Translations under genes and position numbers: made by a program
Notes under the pieces: generated by a model
The model's database searches: none
What the model was told of the DNA's origin: nothing
The model's input: only the letters and a program-made list of their open reading frames with translations
Shown: in pieces, positions 10,611 to 64,000 of the stretch
Position numbering within the stretch: position 1 is the first letter of the stretch
How the letters are laid out: each line of letters opens with the position of its first letter
Assembly (NCBI GenBank): GCA_963931445.1
Contig: OZ007016.1
Span: 1,475,279-1,539,278, forward strand
Direction: 5' to 3'
DNA from: an uncultured Clostridia bacterium
GTDB lineage: Bacteria; Bacillota; Clostridia; TANB77; CAG-508
Length of the DNA: 64,000 bases

Positions 10611-10677
10611 AAATTTTAATACAAGTATTAATAAAATGCAAGTATTTTTTTAAATTTTTTTAATTTTTTTATAAAAA

Positions 10678-10745
10678 GTTAATTAAAAAATTAAATTCTA
10701 TTCAAATAAAAGTAAATAGAATTTAATTGTATTTAATATTTTGTC
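10678..10745. repeat. AT-rich hairpin repeat B; second copy at 61067-61135
   Basis: TTAATTAAAAAATTAAATTCTATTNAAATAAAAGTAAATAGAATTTAATTGTATTT is nearly identical at both loci and carries a 16-bp inverted repeat. Confidence 0.7.
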
Positions 10746-10807
10746 ATAAAAATAAACCCTCCTTATTAAACTTTTTTTGTCTAATAATTGGGGTTCACTT
10801 CATTTTT

Positions 10808-10975
10808 TGTGTTCTATTTTTCAAATTAACTTTTCTTATTGTATAGAAAAAATCGACTTTTTACTTAATATTTCAGTATCTTTAACGATTTTTTCTATAC
10901 AACAAGGTTAAGTTTCCTTAGGCTGTGCATATTCGCGAAGCGAAATGCACATGTGGCGAAGCCACTTTTCTTATT
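10808..10975 (+). repeat. Dispersed structured repeat element A, copy 1
   Basis: Shares GTGTTCTATTTTT..CTTATTGTATAGAAAAAATCGAC..CGATTTTTTCTATACAACAAGGTTA..GGCGAAGCC..CTTTTCTTATT with the copies at 22545, 30800 (tandem) and 61426. Confidence 0.8.
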
Positions 10976-11008
10976 CTTTTTGCTCTACCTTTCTATCAGC
11001 ATACAGTT

Positions 11009-12262
11009 CTACAAATACAAGCTGAGACGGAAGCCGATGCCGAAGTAACTGTCAGTCGCATTGTCGTAGTTACGGCTAGCTGTGTAAATGTTGCTGTCGT
11101 AGTAAAGGCCTCCTCTAAAAGTACAGGGGTTAGCAAAATTGCTGTAAGTGTAACTTGAATATTCTGTAGTCCATTCTGCTAAATTAGAAGCCATATCATT
11201 TATTTTACATACTTCATCTGCATTTGCTCCTGTATTTGCTAAACTACTATTTTTACTTTTTTGATTTGCATAATTTATATTTCCTGCTTCTTGTATATAC
11301 ACTATTGCTGTATCCCATGCATAACTATTTATTAAATCACTTTTTACACTTGTACTTTCTGCATAAGTATTTATTGCAACCTTTGATGCATCAAGCTGAG
11401 TTATATAGTTCCATAATGTTTTTGGATTATATGACATACTATCTTCTGAATAACCATTAGATTTTTTTGATGCTGCTTTATAATTTGCCGTACTGCTTCC
11501 ACTTGCATAACTTGCTTCATATCTTCCTATATAATATCCACCATTTGAATTCACACTATCTATAAATCCTTTTAAATCTTTGGCTGTTGCATTTTCTCCA
11601 TCTTTTCCACTACTTGCAACTCCTTGTCTATATTCTATAATTTCTTTATATCTTGAATTTATTACTACACTGTCTGATTGATCTGTATAATGTTCTGCAT
11701 ATTGTACTGGTTCTGGATTTCCAGATTCATCAAATGTATATCTTCCTAATTTTATTTCTGCACTTGGACTTCCATCATCTTTTGTAAATGTTCCTACTGG
11801 TATCCACACATATTGGCTTCCTTGCACATTTGCATCATTAGATGCATTCACATCTTCTATTACTATTCCTTGATGTACTGTATCTCCTGAATCTTCCGCT
11901 ATTTTAAATCCTGCTGGAACCATTACAGTATTATTCTTTTCATCTTTTATTGGAGTTTTTGATGTAAACACATAACTATTATTCTTTGCATCTGTTACTG
12001 TACTTGGTGGTGGTTCTGGCTCTTTTGTTTGCTCTGTTATATATGCATCTAAATTTGCCATTGTTTGGTCTTCTTTTACTTCTCCCTGCTCTGTTCTATC
12101 TTTTGCTTCTTTTGCCCATCCTACTAATCCATTATCTCCAAATGCTCCTCTTATTGCTATTGTTGCTAATATGATTAATATCACTATTGTTATTACTAAC
12201 GCAATTAAGGTTATTCCTCTTTCTTGTTTTAAGGCTTTTTGAAACTTTTTATTTTTACTCAT
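11009..12262 (-). CDS. type IV pilin-like protein (class III leader KQERG|ITLIALVITIVIL) fused to a C-terminal FGE-sulfatase (SUMF1-like) domain
   Basis: The N-terminal 22 aa are nearly identical to PilA at 42494. The C-terminus carries FGE-sulfatase motifs (NLAEWT, RGG, GIGFRL). The 3' part is noticeably GC-richer than the genome. Confidence 0.7.
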   Translation of the reverse strand: MSKNKKFQKALKQERGITLIALVITIVILIILATIAIRGAFGDNGLVGWAKEAKDRTEQGEVKEDQTMANLDAYITEQTKEPEPPPSTVTDAKNNSYVFTSKTPIKDEKNNTVMVPAGFKIAEDSGDTVHQGIVIEDVNASNDANVQGSQYVWIPVGTFTKDDGSPSAEIKLGRYTFDESGNPEPVQYAEHYTDQSDSVVINSRYKEIIEYRQGVASSGKDGENATAKDLKGFIDSVNSNGGYYIGRYEASYASGSSTANYKAASKKSNGYSEDSMSYNPKTLWNYITQLDASKVAINTYAESTSVKSDLINSYAWDTAIVYIQEAGNINYANQKSKNSSLANTGANADEVCKINDMASNLAEWTTEYSSYTYSNFANPCTFRGGLYYDSNIYTASRNYDNATDSYFGIGFRLSLYL

Positions 12263-12699: not shown

Positions 12700-12780
12700 T
12701 ATGTGAAATATCGTTACTGTTCAGTGTATTAAAAGTTTGGAATATCTATTGAAGAAGTTATTTATTTTTATTACATTTTT
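12700..12780. repeat. Left inverted repeat flanking the endolysin-Fic cassette
   Basis: Its reverse complement aligns with 14311-14392 at about 75-80% identity (AAAAATAAATAACTTCTTCAATA...TTTTAATACACT...TAATATTG). Confidence 0.7.
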
Positions 12781-14310: not shown

Positions 14311-14392
14311 TCTAAATATAATAAAAATAAATAACTTCTTCAATAAATATCACAGATTTTTAATACACTAAATAGTAGCAAAAAATCTCACT
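14311..14392. repeat. Right inverted repeat flanking the endolysin-Fic cassette
   Basis: See 12700-12780. Confidence 0.7.
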
Positions 14393-16517: not shown

Positions 16518-18816
16518 TTATTCTTCTATCTCTTGTTTTAATACAACATTTATTACTGTTCCTTCTTCTACCTTTGTTCCTGCAGTTATATCTTGGCTTG
16601 TTATTTTTCCGCTTCCAGAATATTTTATATTTAAATTCTTATTTTTTAATTCTGCTTTTGCCTCTGATAAGTACATTCCTTTTAAATTAGGTACTGTTTG
16701 TGATATTCTTGTATCATCCTCTTCTGTATATAATTTTATAATAGAACCTTCTATTAGTTCTGTTCCTGCTACTGGCATTTGTTTACTTACAATACTATCT
16801 GACTTGCCTGAAGTACTACATTCAAATCCTAAATTTTCTAACATTTTTTGAGCTTCAGCTACAGTTTTATTTTCAACATTAGGTAATGAAATAGTTTCAG
16901 GGACTTCATCTTCTTCTGTAGTATCTGATGTAATTCCTAAATATGGTAAAACCTCTTTTAATATTTGAGCTACTACCGGTGCTGCAACTGTACTTCCGCT
17001 ATTATAATCTCCTTGTGGACCATATAATGTTACTAATACTACAATTTCTGGACTTTCTACAGGTGATATTCCTACAAATGAAGCTACATAACCTGCATCT
17101 TCATCTGATGGATCTGGCTCTGATGTTCCAGTTTTTCCTGCTATACTATAACCTTTAACTTGAGCATATCTTCCTGTACCACTGTCAACTACTGTTTCTA
17201 ACATGTCTAATAATGACTCTGATGTTTGTTTAGATATTACTTGTCTTACTTTTTCTGGTTCTATTGTTGTAATTGCTCCTGTATCTGTATTTTTTATTTC
17301 TTTTGCTATTCTAGGTTTCATTAATATTCCATCATTTGCAACAGCTGATACAGCTGAAATCATCTGTAATGGTGTTATTTTAAATCTTTGGCCAAATGAC
17401 ATTGTTGCAAGTTCAATGCTTCCACATCTTCTTCATTCCAAAATATACTTTGTGCTTCTTCTGAATTTCCACATCCCCATATATCTCCAAATCCTGTATT
17501 ATCAAAAAAATTAAATGCATCATAATATCTATATAATGTTTCTGCTCCTATTTTTTTGCCAAGTTGTATAAATGCTGGATTACAAGAATACTTTAGTGCA
17601 TCTCTTAAACTTAATGATCCATGTCCAGATTTATCTGAACACCAAATTGTAACTCCAGATACTTTTTCATAGCCTTTACAGGTATATACATTTGTTGTAT
17701 CAGCATCAGTGATTCCTTCTTCTAATCCTGCTGCTGCAGTTATTATTTTAAAAACTGAACCTGGCTCATATGTAGATGTAACTGCTCTATTATTCCATGT
17801 TTCTTGTTGCTTTTGATACTGTTCTTCTGCAGACATCTTTTTCCATTCTTTTTCATCTATAAAATCTAAAGTATATGGATCATTTAAATTATAATCTGGA
17901 TATGTAGCCATTGCCAAAATATCTCCAGTATTTGGCTTCATTATTATTACATTTCCACCATCTTTACATTTATTTTCTTCACAGGCTTGTTTTAAATATT
18001 TTTCTGCTATTTGTTGTATATTTGCATCTATTGTTAAGGTTATATCATTTCCATTTTGTGGTGCAATATATGTTTCATTTTCATATGGAATTAGATCTTG
18101 TACTGCGTCTTGAGCTGATGTAACTTTTCCAGGTGTTCCTGTTAAAATATCATTCCATTTTAATTCTAATCCCCATAATCCATAATTATCTGTACCACAA
18201 AATCCAATTAAATTTGAAGCTAAATTATTGTATGGATAATACCTTTTTGTATCTTCATCTATATTTATTCCACTATATATTTTATTTTCTTTCATCCATT
18301 CTTCTAACTTTTCTACTTTTTCATTTTCTACCTTTTTAGCTATTGTTACATTAGTACTATCACTTGATACTTTTTCTAATGTTTCATCATATTTTAATTC
18401 AAATATTTCTGAAAAAGCTTTTGCTACTTTTTCTTTTAATTCTTTTGTTTTTGTTTCATCAATATCTCCATCATCATTTTCTACTACTATTCTACTAGGA
18501 TCTACACTTATAGTATCTACTTGTGCACTTATAGCTAATGCTTTTCCTGTTGAATCATATATTGTTCCTCTTTTAGGACTAATTGTTTTACTTGCTGTTA
18601 ATTGTCTATGCATTTCTTCTTTTAGTTCAGCCCCTTGTACAATTTGTAACCAAGCTAATCTAAATATTAATATTAATAATACTACAAAAAAAGCAATTAA
18701 TATTCTAGCTATTCTTTCATTAATACTGCATATTTTTTTACTTTGCTAGATTTATTATTTTTTTCAAATTTATATACATTTGTTTTTTTATTATTTTTCA
18801 ACTTTTGTATCATCCT
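16518..18816 (-). CDS. second class B PBP (PBP2B/SpoVD paralog with PASTA domain); at least two single-base frameshifts
   Basis: It is split into 17375-18613 (N-terminal part) and 16518-17402 (C-terminal part). The junction EEDV|GSIELATMSFGQRF needs a 1-nt correction near 17415. The N-terminal TM region (MIQKL...RIARILIAFFVVLL) needs another near 18700. Confidence 0.7.
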
Positions 18817-18996
18817 TTCATTGGATAATTTTATTACAACTTATTATCAGTATTTTGCACTTAATATTTTATATTAAAATATAAAAAAAATCAAGAAAAT
18901 TCGCAATAAATATAGCTTAGATAAAATAAAGTAACTTGATATAATCTTATAAGTTAATGGTAATTTTATACAAATAAATTTTTTGCTTCCTTTTGT

Positions 18997-22544: not shown

Positions 22545-22727
22545 CGTATGACAAATTTCGACTTTATTTTAAATAAGAAAGGTATTTCGCCAAGTATGCC
22601 TCTGAAGTAAGTGCGAAATACATGTCACTCGCTTCGCTCGGACATGCTAAGGAAACCTAACCTTGTTGTATAGCAAAATCGGTAGAAATACTGAAATATC
22701 AAAAAAAGTCGATTTTTCCTATACAAT
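22545..22727 (-). repeat. Repeat element A, copy 2 (inverted), with an adjacent partial 5' fragment
   Basis: Its reverse complement matches the tandem-copy variant at 30800 (…GTCCGAGCGAAGCGAGTGACATGTATTTCGCACTT…). Confidence 0.8.
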
Positions 22728-22767: not shown

Positions 22768-23053
22768 TTATTCTGCAGTATATGGTAATACTGCTATTTG
22801 TCTTGCTCTTTTTACAGCTAGTGTAATATCTCTTTGATGTTTTGCACAAGCTCCTGTTGCTCTTCTTGGAAGTATTTTTCCTTTATCATTAACAAATTTT
22901 TCTTATTTGTTCAGCATTTTTATAATCTAATACTAAATTTTTATCTGCACATAAAGGGCATACTTTTTTTCTTATTTTTCTAAATTTTGGATTATAATCA
23001 CTATCAGAATTATTATTTCTGTTATTTCTTTTATTCTTTTTATTGTCTGCCAT
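22768..23053 (-). CDS. rpsR: 30S ribosomal protein S18; homopolymer frameshift near 22895
   Basis: MADNKKNKR...[23 protein letters not shown] then stops. Deleting one A from aaaaa restores [42 protein letters not shown]. Confidence 0.85.
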
Positions 23054-23118
23054 TTTTCTTCCCCCTTCCAAATAATTTTATATTTCTCAATTATAGTTAA
23101 ATTTATTAATCTAAAATA

Positions 23119-23882: not shown

Positions 23883-24003
23883 TACAATTCACCTCCTCTT
23901 GGATATGTAACCTATGGACTTATGCCATAAGTAAGGAAAAAATAGCATCGCTATTTCTAACATTATTATTTTAGCATTAATTTATAAAAAAATCAAGAGA
24001 TTT

Positions 24004-24146
24004 TTAAATTCGTTTTAGGGACAGGTCTCCCAGCGAACTTTTTTTCGTTTTAGGGACAGGTCTCTTGACACAATAAATTGTCAAGAGACCTGTCCCTAAA
24101 ACGAAAAAAAGTTCGCTGGGAGACCTGTCCCTAAAACGAATTTGAC
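24004..24146. repeat. Perfect palindrome of about 143 bp, about 45% GC, with CGTTTTAGGGACAGGTCTC twice in each arm
   Basis: The arms are exact reverse complements around the centre CAATAAATT. It contains four GGTCTC/GAGACC sites. Confidence 0.85.
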
Positions 24147-24229
24147 ACATTTTTATTTTTATAGTAATATACTATCATAGTTTAAGAATGCATTACAAAT
24201 TATTAGTAGTAAAAGAAAGGAGTTTTTTA

Positions 24230-24400
24230 TTCTTAAGCGCCTGGACATATTATTATGTATGTTGACGAGGTAGAGATTTATCGAATTTTTCGGCGGATGA
24301 TCTCTTGGCATTTAATTACTGCCATAAATATTAGTTAAAGGCTTGTAGTAATGCAAGTATACAAAGCTAATAGGGTAATGTTTTATTTGTATTGTTTTCT
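24230..24400 (+). ncRNA. glmS ribozyme (GlcN6P-dependent) in the glmS 5' UTR
   Basis: AGCGCCTGGAC...GTTGACGAGGTAGAG.TTATCGAATTTTTCGGCGGATG matches the glmS ribozyme core. Confidence 0.8.
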
Positions 24401-27861: not shown

Positions 27862-28139
27862 TCTTGATTCTCCTATAATTATTTTTCTTTTGTAATATTT
27901 TAAATAAATTTATATTTTTTATACATTTTTTACCTTTCATTATCTTCTTTTCTTATACAATTATTTATAAATTTCAAGTTGCAATGACATATCTGTACAT
28001 TTTGCTTTATAAATACGATTATTGCAAGAAAACTTAGTATTGTTGTATAGTAAAAATTATAACATCATAAATAATTTATGTCAATTTAGTCAAATATGTT
28101 GATATTTTTCTTATTTAGTGATAAAATATTATTGTTTTT

Positions 28140-30753: not shown

Positions 30754-30770
30754 TTTTTTCAGTTTTTAAA

Positions 30771-30808
30771 AAATGGTGTCCTTATGTCAAGGACACCATT
30801 TTTTTATT
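30771..30808 (+). terminator. Rho-independent terminator
   Basis: AAAAATGGTGTCCTTATGTCAAGGACACCATTTTTTT. Confidence 0.85.
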
Positions 30809-31150
30809 GTATAGGAAAAATCGACTTTTTATTTAAAATTTCAGTATTTTTAATGATTTTTGCTATACAACAAGGTTAGGCATCCTTAGACTGTCCGAGC
30901 GAAGCGAGTGACATGTATTTCGCACTTGCTTCAGAGGAATACTTGGCGAAATGCCTTTCTTATTGTATAGCAAAAATCGACTTTTTATTTAAAATTTCAG
31001 TATTTTTAATGATTTTTGCTATACAACAAGGTTAGGCATCCTTAGACTGTCCGAGCGAAGCGAGTGACATGTATTTCGCACTTGCTTCAGAGGAATACTT
31101 GGCGAAATGCCTTTCTTATTGTATAGCAAAAATCGACTTTTTTCGTGATA
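30800..31150 (+). repeat. Repeat element A, tandem array of two full 156-bp units plus a partial third
   Basis: The units abut head to tail (…CTTTCTTATTGTATAGCAAAAATCGAC…) with no spacer. Confidence 0.85.
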
Positions 31151-31230
31151 TTTTAGTACGCTTATCTATTCTTGCTATATAAAAATGTTTAATTTTCTTA
31201 AATAATCTTTACTGTATTTTAGTATTTTAA

Positions 31231-56082: not shown

Positions 56083-56403
56083 ATATACTTAATCCTCTTA
56101 TAATATGTTTATACAGTTTATATTTAATATTTTATAAACATATTCTTTCCTTTATATTTTTACTTTATTACTTTACCATATTATGTCATATTTTTCAATT
56201 GTTTAAACAAATAATTCTTAAAACAATACATATTATTTTATATTTGTAGCATTTTACTTTGTAGATATGCATACTTCATAATTTAACCTTATTGTATAGG
56301 CAAAAAATTTAGAACACTAGATAAATTTATATTTTAATACATTTACCTAGTGTTCTATCATTTTATAATAGTGTAAAATATTACTAGTAGTCATTTTTTA
56401 TTC

Positions 56404-61066: not shown

Positions 61067-61135
61067 TGTTAATTAAAAAATTAAATTCTATTTAAATAAA
61101 AGTAAATAGAATTTAATTGTATTTTAATATATATT
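61067..61135. repeat. AT-rich hairpin repeat B, copy 2
   Basis: Matches 10678-10745. Confidence 0.7.
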
Positions 61136-61425: not shown

Positions 61426-61582
61426 CAGGTGTTCTATTTTTTAAATTAACTTTTCTTATTGTATAGAAAAAATCGACTTTTTACTTAATATTTCAGTATC
61501 TTTAACGATTTTTGCTATACAACAAGGTTAAGTTTCCTTGGGCCGAGCGTATTTGCGAAGCAAAACGCTCATGTGGCGAAGC
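61426..61582 (+). repeat. Repeat element A, copy 5, truncated at its 3' end by the IS insertion
   Basis: Identical to copy 1 through ..CATGTGGCGAAGC, then IS sequence (TGTAAATGTCAAG) instead of CACTTTTCTTATT. Confidence 0.75.
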
Positions 61583-61684
61583 TGTAAATGTCAAGTGAAA
61601 AATGTACTTTTTTTCCAGTTTCAAAAATGTACGAAAATTCCAGTTTTAAATATATACTTAGAGGGGAAAATCCCCTCTAAAATT

Positions 61685-61867
61685 TTAGAAAAAATTTTCT
61701 TCTCTATAATCCTTTTCTAGCATAACATCTTTTTTATTACAATGATATGCTAAATAATGTAATTCATTTATAATTTCTTCTTTTGTAAGTTTTCGTCCTA
61801 ATTCTGTTATTCTATCTATTGCTACATCTACATATATTATCATTTCTCTCACTGTCATCTTATACAC
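61685..61867 (-). CDS. small ORF downstream of istB inside the IS
   Basis: ORF only. Confidence 0.2.
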   Translation of the reverse strand: MYKMTVREMIIYVDVAIDRITELGRKLTKEEIINELHYLAYHCNKKDVMLEKDYREENFF

Positions 61868-62630
61868 CTTCCTTTTCTATATTTCTTTGCATCTCCACAT
61901 TTCTATCTTTTATTCTATATGATTGTCCTTTAATTTTTATTATGTGACTGTGGTGCACTAATCTATCTATTATTGCTGCTGTCACTACGGAATCTCCAAA
62001 TATATCTGACCACTTGCTAAATACCTGATTTGTTGTTAATATTGTTGACTTCTTTTCATATCTTTTATTTATTAATTGAAAAAACAAATATGCTCCTTCT
62101 TTCGTTATCGGTAAATACCCTATTTCATCAATTATCAGCAATTTATATTTACAAAAATATTTTATTTTTATATCTGCTCTATTTTCAGAATTAGCTTGTA
62201 CTAATTGATTTATTAAATCATTAAAAGTTATGTAATATGTGCTAATCCTTCGTTTCGCTGCTGCCATTCCAATTCCAACCGCTAAATGTGTTTTTCCAAC
62301 TCCACTTGTTCCTACAAATATTATATTTTCACTCTTCTCCATAAATCTTAATGTTTCTAAATCATAAAGTTCAGTTTTATCTACACTAGGCTGATAACTA
62401 AAATCAAAATCATCTAATGTCTTTTCAAATGGAAATGCAGACACTTTTATATTTACTTTTGCAGCTCTTTCAGTTTGATATTTAATTTCTTCTTTTGTTA
62501 AATCATACAACATTTCTGTAAATGAAATATTTTTGTCTTTCATCTCATCTAAATATCCAGGTAACATATTTTTTATATTATCTAATTTTAAAATTTCTAA
62601 ATTATCTATTAAATCTGTATACATACTCAT
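61860..62630 (-). CDS. istB: IS21-family helper ATPase IstB
   Basis: Walker A GTSGVGKTHLA and the DnaC-like AAA+ fold. Confidence 0.9.
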   Translation of the reverse strand: MSMYTDLIDNLEILKLDNIKNMLPGYLDEMKDKNISFTEMLYDLTKEEIKYQTERAAKVNIKVSAFPFEKTLDDFDFSYQPSVDKTELYDLETLRFMEKSENIIFVGTSGVGKTHLAVGIGMAAAKRRISTYYITFNDLINQLVQANSENRADIKIKYFCKYKLLIIDEIGYLPITKEGAYLFFQLINKRYEKKSTILTTNQVFSKWSDIFGDSVVTAAIIDRLVHHSHIIKIKGQSYRIKDRNVEMQRNIEKEGV

Positions 62631-62642
62631 ATTTCTTTCCTC

Positions 62643-63854
62643 CTACAATTCGTCATAATCACTCAAATGATTATTTACAAACTCTTCAATTTCATTATCT
62701 TTGTAGCCTTTTAAGGCATCAGACTTTAATATATCCACTATATGTTCTTTATGATAATTTAAAAATTTTTTACTCTTTTTATGTTTTGTTATTAAATTTG
62801 TTATATAATATATATGGATATATTCATCAGTTTCTTTTACAGAGACTGATTTGCCTATTAGGTATGTCGGAACGGAGTATTTTTGCCCTTTATATGTAAT
62901 CATAGATTCTTTGGATACTTTATATTCCTTTGGCGAGGTTGTGTAAGCATTCAATACTTCTTGATTCGGTAAAGGCAATAAATACTTTGTTTCTTTTTCT
63001 AATCTTTCTATTGGTTTCATATTTGTTCCTTGAGATATTTCATTATTGATTTCTTTCATGAACATTTTTACTATTTTTTCTAATTCTTCATATGTCTCGA
63101 ATTCATGATTATATACTTGAAGTCTATCAACTAGTTTTGCTAAGGACTCTACTTTCCCTTTTGTTTGTGGTCTATATATTCTACAAGTTATTGGGTTAAA
63201 TCCAATGTCTTTAGAATACTGTACAAATTTCGTATTTAATTTAACATTTCCAATTCTACTATTTGCTCTATCTACTACTGTTGCCATATTATCAAAGACA
63301 ATTTCTTTTGGTACTCCTCCAAAATATTTAAAGGCCTCATTCATACATTTAAATAGAGTTTTTTGGGTTTTATCTGATGTTAACTTTACAAATTTTGTTC
63401 GAGAATATCCTAATACCATTAGAAAAATATTTACTTCAAAAAGTTCTCCATGTTTTGAAATCATCTTTAGATTTTCCTTCCAATCCACTTGTGCTTGAAG
63501 TCCTGGGGCTGTTTCAAATCTTATTGTCGCCTTTTTTATTTGTTCCTCTTTATGTTTTTGAACAAAATCTGCAACTAACGAATATGAACCTGTATATCCA
63601 TCTTTTTGGATAAATTTAAATATTGCCATACTTGTACATCCTATTTCTAATTTAGATATTATTGTTTCTTTAAATTTATCTAATTTAGATTTTTTCAAAA
63701 TTTTTCTTTTCTTTTTAAGCTCATATCCTTCCAAATATCTCTTTACAGTTCTAGGATCACATCCCATAATTCTTGCCATTGCTGCTTTACTCATAGTTTC
63801 TTTTTCACCTCCTCTTAGAAATATATTAATTTCATTAAGTACATCTTGTCTCAT
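62643..63854 (-). CDS. istA: IS21-family transposase IstA
   Basis: N-terminal HTH and DDE integrase core. Start set at MRQDVLNEINIF behind an AGGAAAGGTGA RBS. Confidence 0.9.
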   Translation of the reverse strand: MRQDVLNEINIFLRGGEKETMSKAAMARIMGCDPRTVKRYLEGYELKKKRKILKKSKLDKFKETIISKLEIGCTSMAIFKFIQKDGYTGSYSLVADFVQKHKEEQIKKATIRFETAPGLQAQVDWKENLKMISKHGELFEVNIFLMVLGYSRTKFVKLTSDKTQKTLFKCMNEAFKYFGGVPKEIVFDNMATVVDRANSRIGNVKLNTKFVQYSKDIGFNPITCRIYRPQTKGKVESLAKLVDRLQVYNHEFETYEELEKIVKMFMKEINNEISQGTNMKPIERLEKETKYLLPLPNQEVLNAYTTSPKEYKVSKESMITYKGQKYSVPTYLIGKSVSVKETDEYIHIYYITNLITKHKKSKKFLNYHKEHIVDILKSDALKGYKDNEIEEFVNNHLSDYDEL

Positions 63855-64000
63855 AATATCACCTTTCCTTTCTATTGAGACAATTAGCATCATTTACATA
63901 TACTAATTGATGTACTTATATTTTACCAATTCTTACCTATTAAGGCAAAAGAAAAAATGTAGGTTTTCCTACATTTTTATGTTGGAAAAAAACTACATTT

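Follow-up and report, generated by a model that had tools for sequence, protein, structure and literature searches.

We found that the dispersed repeat in this DNA, which we call element A, is best explained as a family of small, non-autonomous mobile DNA elements with specificity for both the site and the orientation of insertion, a reading to which we give a probability of about 0.6. The family has exact boundaries and a mosaic build with covarying hairpins, it inserts precisely and with a single polarity at a target with a clear consensus, and it is spread over multiple species. It is an undescribed repeat family of uncultured gut Clostridia, although of a kind that is itself familiar among bacteria; we found no literature record of its arm sequences, and a general literature search on MITEs and Clostridia returned no specific match.

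The window, by which we mean the whole stretch of 64,000 nucleotides that was analysed, is a core chromosomal region of an AT-rich host, and contains the dcw cluster with mraZ, rpsF-ssb-rpsR, glmS with its ribozyme, serS with its T-box, gltX, RNase J, a type IV pilus cluster and ctsR. The host is taken to be a spore-former because a SASP gene lies close by in L001, a near-identical contig that overlaps the window. Reading of the reported places, a repeat scan and a profile search together gave four element A loci in the window, plus two decayed remnants, with the following coordinates and parts (modules M1 to M4 are described below):

10831-10838, + strand: target T-tract TTTTCTTA, directly 5′ of copy 1
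10839-10973, + strand: copy 1, subtype I, full, 135 bp, with an orthologous empty site in L024
10839-10902, + strand: M1 hairpin of copy 1
10904-10919, + strand: M2 of copy 1
10924-10950, + strand: M3 of copy 1, GTGCAT.A.TTCGC-GAA-GCGAA.ATGCAC
10953-10965, + strand: M4a of copy 1, GTGGCGAAGCCAC
10966-10973, + strand: terminal TTTTCTTA of copy 1
22574-22726, − strand: copy 2, subtype III, full, 153 bp
27990-28057, − strand: decayed 5′-truncated remnant, upstream of the serS T-box leader
30768-30806, + strand: native intrinsic terminator, 16-bp stem followed by TTTTTTTA, which provides the array with its T-tract landing site
30807-31200, + strand: whole tandem array, made of units a and b and a short-form third unit
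30807-30962, + strand: tandem unit a, subtype III, 156 bp
30963-31118, + strand: tandem unit b, subtype III, 156 bp
31119-31200, + strand: third array unit, a diverged short form with M1, half of M2 and TTTTCTTA
56245-56307, − strand: decayed 5′-truncated remnant, from the right arm of M1 to M3
61459-61583, + strand: copy 5, subtype I, cut inside M4, its last hairpin, by an IS21
61584-63893: IS21-family element in copy 5, with IstB at 61860-62630 and IstA at 62643-63893

All the copies described in the first-pass annotation, which had proposed a dispersed repeat, exist and are intergenic as stated, but about 30 nt of flank had been wrongly included at copies 1, 2 and 5. The 30 nt before copy 1 (GTGTTCTATTTTTYAAATTAAC, 10809-10838) are flank and not element because they are present at the element-free orthologous site in L024. 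The same 30 nt precede copy 5 (61429-61458), which could be read-through of an element end; a segmental duplication that the IS21 cut afterwards is an equally good explanation. The tandem locus had been counted as 2.5 units of 156 bp; two units of that length are there, and the third is the diverged short form. Unit b differs from unit a only at position 9, where G is changed to C and the C-G pair in M1 is restored. A remnant announced near 56300 is the decayed copy ending at 56307, and the second remnant is additional to it. Overall, the opening motif of the element has 21 matches in the window at up to 3 mismatches, compared to 2.8 expected by chance.

The window also holds features that are separate from the family. 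Between rpsF and the glmS ribozyme (24225-24382) lies a near-perfect palindrome (23982-24167) with 89-nt arms that are 88% complementary, an 8-nt spacer and repeated CGTTTTAGGGACAGGTCTC units, which could be what is left of an IS, or a further small mobile element. A 40-nt palindrome, AATTAAATTCTATTyAAATAAAAGTAAATAGAATTTAATT, is found upstream of mraZ (10689-10728) and of ctsR (61079-61118) within a repeat of about 125 nt that is weakly present also at 18770-18894 and is distinct from element A. Inverted arms of 77 nt (12702-12778 and 14314-14390, 82% complementary) surround divergent PG_binding and Fic genes, and the relative orientation of the Fic gene in related contigs is opposite in L083 to that in L001, suggesting an inversion at this locus. 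Lastly, rpsR (S18, 22771-23071) is split over two frames, with a 60-aa ORF at 22889-23071, and is intact with 94 aa in the near-identical L101; the split is probably a frameshift or an assembly error.

Beyond the window, an exact scan over one genome per species with the 23-base motif TTGTATAGNAAAAATCGACTTTTT found 70 loci in 27 MAGs, nearly all of them labelled uncultured Clostridia or Clostridium and derived from human, rabbit, chicken and mouse gut, and a metagenome scan added 110 stretches. Using nhmmer, we counted 200 copies across 166 fetched loci (the 27 species-level MAGs and gut metagenomes), and the number of loci with exact matches ranged from 1 to at least 12 per MAG. Neither a scan of viral contigs nor blastn against phage and plasmid collections gave a match to element A. 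In a rabbit-gut MAG, REP-like GTAG palindromes (GTAGGGGTCG...CGACCCC) adjoin element A (L042 3030-3440 and the left flank of L008); these form a second repeat family, unrelated to the first.

Full copies are 107-184 bp long, start with TTGTATAGG and end with (T/C)TTTCTTA, and are composed of four modules, namely the M1 hairpin, the M2 mini-hairpin and the variable hairpins M3 and M4. M1 has a 17-bp stem, TTGTATAGGAAAAATCG ... CGATTTTTCC(G)TATACAA, both arms of which are almost invariant in sequence, and a loop of 4 to about 60 nt that in some copies contains a nested hairpin or a foreign insertion. M2 reads CAAGG-N8-CCTTG. M3, of which there are at least three types, has a conserved bulge and nearly always closes on a C-GAA-G loop (GCGAAGC); a conserved ACATGTG follows it on the 3′ side. 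M4 also comes in at least three types, which are M4a (GTGGCGAAGCCAC), a two-step hairpin of about 35 nt, and GTATTTCGC...GCGAAATGC. As the types of M3 and M4 occur in different combinations among copies, the family is a mosaic. In addition, a recurrent short form of about 80 bp consists only of M1, half of M2 and TTTCTTA, as seen in L050 and in the third unit of the array. Terminal inverted repeats are absent: the left end reads TTGTATAGG and the reverse complement of the right end reads TAAGAAAAG(TGG) or GAAAAGTGG, and the sole inverted repeat is internal and consists of the two arms of M1. The opening inverted repeat, the AAGG..CCTT mini-hairpin and the variable distal hairpins, self-complementary in each copy described, had all been noticed in the first-pass annotation and are all present.

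Other small elements are found inserted in the M1 loop of element A (L151/L158 and L126/L214), one with the terminal inverted repeat CTGGTGTTAGAATAGATATATAGACAC and the other with GGGACAGTCCC repeats.

Covariation was measured on 23 distinct copies of subtype II with a hand-drawn structure. We found that 94.3% of the cells hold standard pairs, compared to only 32-51% when the partners are slid by 1-3 columns as a control. Furthermore, 13 pairs are changed on both sides, against 6.9±1.4 in shuffles (none of 500 shuffles reaches 13), and the covariation score is 0.166 against 0.085, in line with the conserved secondary structure with compensatory substitutions that had been suggested for the repeat. 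The covariation is located in M3 and M4, which conserve structure rather than sequence. M1 hardly varies except at its central pair, for which A-T, G-C, C-G and G.T are found, and which does covary as the first-pass annotation had it (A-T in copy 1 and C-G in unit b), with G-C in most relatives; M2 has no compensatory change in the aligned copies. Folding single copies as DNA gave z = -7.6 and -5.0 relative to shuffles, while one RNAalifold run that mixed the subtypes gave no useful result, as their M3 types are different.

Compensatory changes of this kind in M3 and M4 would also be expected if element A were primarily a functional RNA, either a small RNA gene spanning M2-M4 and ending at an M4 terminator or a 3′-UTR or terminator module selected by the host in cis, with spread being secondary. 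We judge this unlikely. It agrees with the enrichment of copies at gene 3′ ends, with M4a followed by TTTTCTTATT, which passes an intrinsic-terminator scan in subtype I (subtype III fails it), with a TTGACC-N18-TATACA inside M1 of the short-loop subtypes, and with a + strand T.G wobble in the GTATTTCGC/GCGAAATGC stem that is kept in 8 of 10 subtype III copies. However, a sigma-70 scan passes no promoter in the element, the TATACA does not have the conserved final T of a -10 hexamer, and copies are sense and antisense to co-directional neighbours equally often (16 vs 16). The pairing has no strand bias either: G.T and A.C mismatches number 21 and 18, and the 3′ halves of 91 copies fold equally well on both strands (z = -3.12 and -3.16); base composition accounts for a raw energy that is somewhat lower on the + strand. 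A search of Rfam, proposed in the first-pass annotation and run at the gathering threshold and at E-value thresholds, matched no family to the element; the window matches were only the T-box and glmS, both outside of it, and the best matches of the element itself were generic hairpins with 13-29 bits, compared to gathering thresholds of 43-140. Finally M1, the most conserved part, is conserved in sequence and not only in structure. The option of an independent small RNA gene, which the first-pass annotation had offered, is thus disfavoured by the lack of a promoter, of an Rfam family, of a preferred gene orientation and of strand asymmetry.

The insertion site was defined from 125 distinct non-tandem left flanks. 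The last three flank bases are T, T and A in 121, 120 and 122 of them, T prevails at -5 to -7 (101-117), and position -4 carries T 92 times and C 23 times, compared to C in 98 of 102 copies at the equivalent position of the element’s own TTTCTTA end. This difference at -4 shows that the right-hand TTTCTTA belongs to the element and is not copied from the target; TTA alone is common to both sides, which would leave room for a 3-bp duplication at most. The right flank opens with T in 80 of 89 cases, and the junction TTTYTTA|T is observed in about 97% of the 125 flanks, always with one fixed polarity.

Two independent orthologous empty sites, both from other species with about 75-85% flank identity, show that insertion is precise. 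The empty site in L024 reads ...AACTTTTTTTA|TTCTTTTTGCTCTACC (also given as ...TTAATTAACTTTTTTTA|TTCTTTTTGCTCTACC), with the T-tract TTTTTTTA|TTC, and the window has the L024 flanks with the 135 bp of copy 1 in between. At the second site, L041 and L067 are empty (CTTTTA|TTTTT) and L193 carries a 130-bp copy. An empty site within the species was sought through identical MraZ and SSB proteins, and the contigs with the same neighbourhood were all filled. Near the empty site in L024 (2651-2740) we observed a GC-rich tandem repeat, two units of GGCGCCATGCACCCTTGTTAGGGCG, in an AT-rich genome. Separately, the segment around 10660-12262, which holds a gene for a 417-aa prepilin-like protein, copy 1 and the palindrome, is strain-variable, because it is absent from L092-L096, where MraZ is identical and a serine recombinase and other genes take its place.

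These junctions bear on whether element A is a classical MITE, moved by a DDE transposase with a 3-bp TTA (TWA-type) target duplication. TTA flanks every full copy on both sides and is single at empty sites, and the size, the AT-richness and the intergenic position are MITE-like. Yet terminal inverted repeats are absent, the conserved TTTCTTA of the right end extends well past TTA and is not derived from the target, polarity is fixed relative to an asymmetric target, and no related IS was found in the fetched loci, the phage and plasmid collections or the viral contigs, which leaves a MITE of this type very unlikely. The wider option of a MITE- or PATE-like mobile hairpin, which was among those listed in the first-pass annotation, is the one favoured by the precise empty sites, the strict target, the mixed-subtype arrays and the identical copies at different loci.

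Very often, the insertion site coincides with an intrinsic terminator's T-tract, or reads as the complement of a TAA stop codon with an A-run behind it. Among intergenic TTTYTTAT sites, a fold of -8 kcal/mol or lower within the 40 nt before the T-tract is present at 43% of the occupied and at 13% of the unoccupied ones (p = 7e-10). In the window, copy 2 (landing at 22726) lies directly 3′ of the rpsR terminator hairpin and T-tract, GGCTTTTTA|TTGTATAGG, and the array starts at 30807, behind the terminator with the 16-bp stem. The rpsR loci of related species have unoccupied terminators of the form hairpin plus TTTTTTTA, in flanks that are not alignable. As for gene context, 24 copies are between convergent genes, 16 and 16 are in the two orientations between co-directional genes and 5 are between divergent genes. 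The terminal TTA of the element serves as the convergent gene's stop codon (distance -2) in over a dozen instances.

Several observations suggest that the element moves. Within one MAG, three unrelated loci carry 159-bp copies with 100% identity to each other, and three other copies differ by 2 nt. Head-to-tail arrays (L017, L063, L047, L049, L028 and L022) are exactly contiguous and often combine different subtypes, which means that slippage cannot be the origin of the mixed ones; these are explained by the 3′ end of every resident copy, a hairpin followed by TTTCTTA, which recreates the landing site. For the array in the window, whose two units are 99% identical, local duplication may be an alternative origin. 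Individual copies are not protected by selection, since truncated, decayed and interrupted copies occur.

For these reasons we regard it as extremely improbable that element A is a host-functional DNA site of the REP/BIME kind, bound by a nucleoid protein, gyrase or a recombination protein, kept by selection and spread by gene conversion. The invariance of the M1 sequence across 27 species would suit such a site, as would the mosaic of modules, which is as in BIMEs; against it are the precise presence or absence at orthologous positions, the strict junction sequence, the identical copies at unrelated loci and the wide variation of copy number between MAGs, together with decayed and truncated copies and one copy destroyed by IS21, which speak against site-specific purifying selection.

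How would a mobile element A move? Its copies are inserted in one orientation only, directly between a chromosomal TTTYTTA on the 5′ side and a T on the 3′ side, and each of them brings its own 3′ hairpin and TTTCTTA and so offers the next landing site. In the mechanism that we propose, element A would be mobilised in trans by a sequence-specific enzyme that would recognise M1 and the TTTCTTA|T junction. M1 is the best candidate for the recognition site because its sequence is invariant and the short form retains it; for M3 and M4, folding is all that is needed. Recombination or protein binding had also been listed as a role of the repeat; M1 may have such a role, and it fits best as the recognition site of the mobilising enzyme.

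The most likely candidate for this enzyme would be a single-strand-DNA transposase of the HUH type, similar to those of IS200/IS605, IS91 or Helitrons. A DDE cut-and-paste enzyme is disfavoured because of insertion 3′ of a motif with one polarity and with neither terminal inverted repeats nor a real target site duplication, and also because of the 3′ hairpin about 8 nt from the end, the target-like donor end and the GNA-type loops. The same combination of features is typical of HUH single-strand transposition as known from IS200/IS605, IS91 and Helitron-like elements. Against the HUH reading, the M1 and M4 hairpins are unlike each other, although IS200/IS605-like end hairpins would be expected to be similar, and no HUH gene was seen in the MAG pieces. 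A replication-strand bias would be another expectation; relative to the local majority gene direction, a weak proxy for the replication strand, 20 copies have the same and 15 the opposite orientation (p = 0.5). Target-primed retroposition was rejected, as it predicts a target-derived T-tract at the right end and the opposite asymmetry is observed.

The main alternative to an HUH enzyme is a site-specific recombinase (tyrosine, serine or IS110-type DEDD, perhaps with a bridge RNA) that would integrate a double-stranded circle, with the circle junction TTTCTTA|TTGTATAG recombining with the chromosomal TTTYTTA|T. Such a route would account for the TTTYTTA core common to donor end and target, for the absence of terminal inverted repeats and of a long duplication and for the fixed polarity; the predicted circle junction is present in tandem arrays, and a palindromic M1 of invariant sequence would suit the binding of a recombinase. 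But crossover should place the C/T difference on both sides, and C is found in 96% at the right end and 18% at the left. Furthermore, no recombinase gene is linked to the copies, and neither a bridge-RNA-like Rfam match nor a promoter was found. We therefore consider integration of a circle improbable.

The mobilising gene itself was sought in several ways. No transposase or recombinase is found inside, beside or recurrently near the copies in MAG pieces of 8-15 kb, and in these pieces no HUH gene (Y1 transposase or RAYT) is next to a copy. Clustering of 619 neighbouring ORFs gave only clusters of orthologous sites (M23 peptidase, histidine kinase, GGDEF protein, racemase and one Replic_Relax protein) and no recurrent transposase. 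Window genes are housekeeping genes plus one unrelated IS21, with no candidate mobiliser among them; the 417-aa neighbour of copy 1 was considered as a transposase and rejected, being prepilin-like. Fragments with only the left arm (L042, L047, L043 and L022) are followed by other repeats or by ordinary genes. In the fetched loci, a gene never separates a left arm from a right arm at a distance of more than 130 nt, and a metagenome scan for a left arm followed by an RBS and ATG had 0 matches. Likewise, we found no parent IS sharing both ends, whether among the 1.5 Mb of fetched loci, the phage and plasmid collections or the viral contigs.

A bolder version, which we offer tentatively and on the doubtful side, is that element A is the non-autonomous partner of an unrecognised transposition system that uses terminators, as hairpin plus T-tract, for landing sites. 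If so, the terminator-mimicking 3′ end would be a donor signal, and every insertion would build the next landing pad. The enzyme might then represent a new lineage of HUH proteins or recombinases, or come from a single-copy host gene domesticated in the manner of RAYT, in uncultured gut Clostridia that are abundant. In any case, the signature of no terminal inverted repeats, no target duplication, fixed polarity and a self-renewing target is a handle for finding the mobilising enzyme.

Returning to element A as a small mobile element, we compared it with known families, and found that the closest in kind is SPRITE and the closest in insertion signature are the hairpin elements derived from IS200/IS605; it has no sequence in common with these, with SPRITE or with the BOX and BIME elements. 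IS200/IS605 PATEs and REP/RAYT systems (HUH Y1) insert 3′ of a short specific sequence with fixed polarity and with neither terminal inverted repeats nor target duplications, and their non-autonomous elements, which depend on hairpins and not on duplex repeats, are moved in trans, with a hairpin placed subterminally, some 8-10 nt away from the point of 3′ cleavage. Element A is like them in its insertion 3′ of a motif, in its single polarity and in the absence of a target duplication, as seen at TTTYTTA|T and at the empty sites. It also resembles them in its lack of terminal inverted repeats and in its subterminal 3′ hairpin, and would likewise be hairpin-dependent, non-autonomous and moved in trans. 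It differs in that its end hairpins are unrelated instead of similar, M1 being a 17-bp AT-rich stem at nt 1 and M4 a GC-rich stem of 5-14 bp located 8 nt from the end. Furthermore, the PATE and REP/RAYT hairpin is about 19 nt inside whereas M1 begins at the first base, their target is a tetra- or pentanucleotide whereas that of element A is a T-rich motif of 7-8 nt, and no TnpA or RAYT was found beside the copies of element A.

Elements of the IS91/ISCR and Helitron types have no terminal inverted repeats and make no target duplication, insert between A and T, and have a hairpin about 10 nt from the 3′ end and a target-like donor terminus. All of this is shared by element A, but no Rep/HUH Y2 gene was found and the target is not GTTC/CTTG. 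The bcr1 repeat of the Bacillus cereus group is about 155 bp long, has a stable predicted structure with compensatory changes and a specific T-rich site, and is reported to duplicate its TTTAT target. Compared by description only, bcr1 is, like element A, a structured interspersed repeat of Firmicutes at a T-rich site; element A does not duplicate TTTYTTA and is not known to have a sequence relationship to it.

SPRITE is a small, AT-rich interspersed repeat of pneumococci with a terminator-like hairpin and a T-rich tract, which is enriched between convergent genes and near 3′ ends and has no convincing terminal inverted repeats and no known mobilising IS (PMC3049150). Element A is alike in its hairpin and T-tract, its enrichment between convergent genes and at 3′ ends, its lack of terminal inverted repeats and the absence of a known mobiliser, and both repeats cluster with or insert beside others. 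However, the two have no sequence similarity, and element A has four modules, with an invariant 5′ hairpin and covarying, exchangeable 3′ hairpins; moreover its insertion site and empty sites are defined, which could not be done for SPRITE (PMC3049150). BOX of S. pneumoniae has boxA and boxC ends resembling terminal inverted repeats and makes target duplications (PMC3049150), and element A has neither. With BOX and the enterobacterial BIMEs element A shares a modular mosaic with variable internal modules, extensive predicted hairpins, intergenic location and tens of copies per genome, its modules being unrelated in sequence. Like repeats of the SPRITE/BOX type, element A is multi-copy, shorter than 200 bp, intergenic, structured and enriched downstream of genes. 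Since it has no homology in sequence to the pneumococcal families, this likeness is one of kind, not of lineage.

Taken together, these results place one more member in the well-known class of bacterial small interspersed repeats, and provide exact boundaries, a target site and empty sites for a repeat family that is common in one lineage of gut Clostridia, uncultured although widely sampled. Such elements disrupt short-read assemblies, and many copies are here at contig ends; copies of element A are also usable as strain markers. For the host, a likely side effect would be extra or stronger terminators and 3′-end hairpins. Copies add terminator-like hairpins, or stack them, at gene 3′ ends, and provide convergent genes with stop codons.
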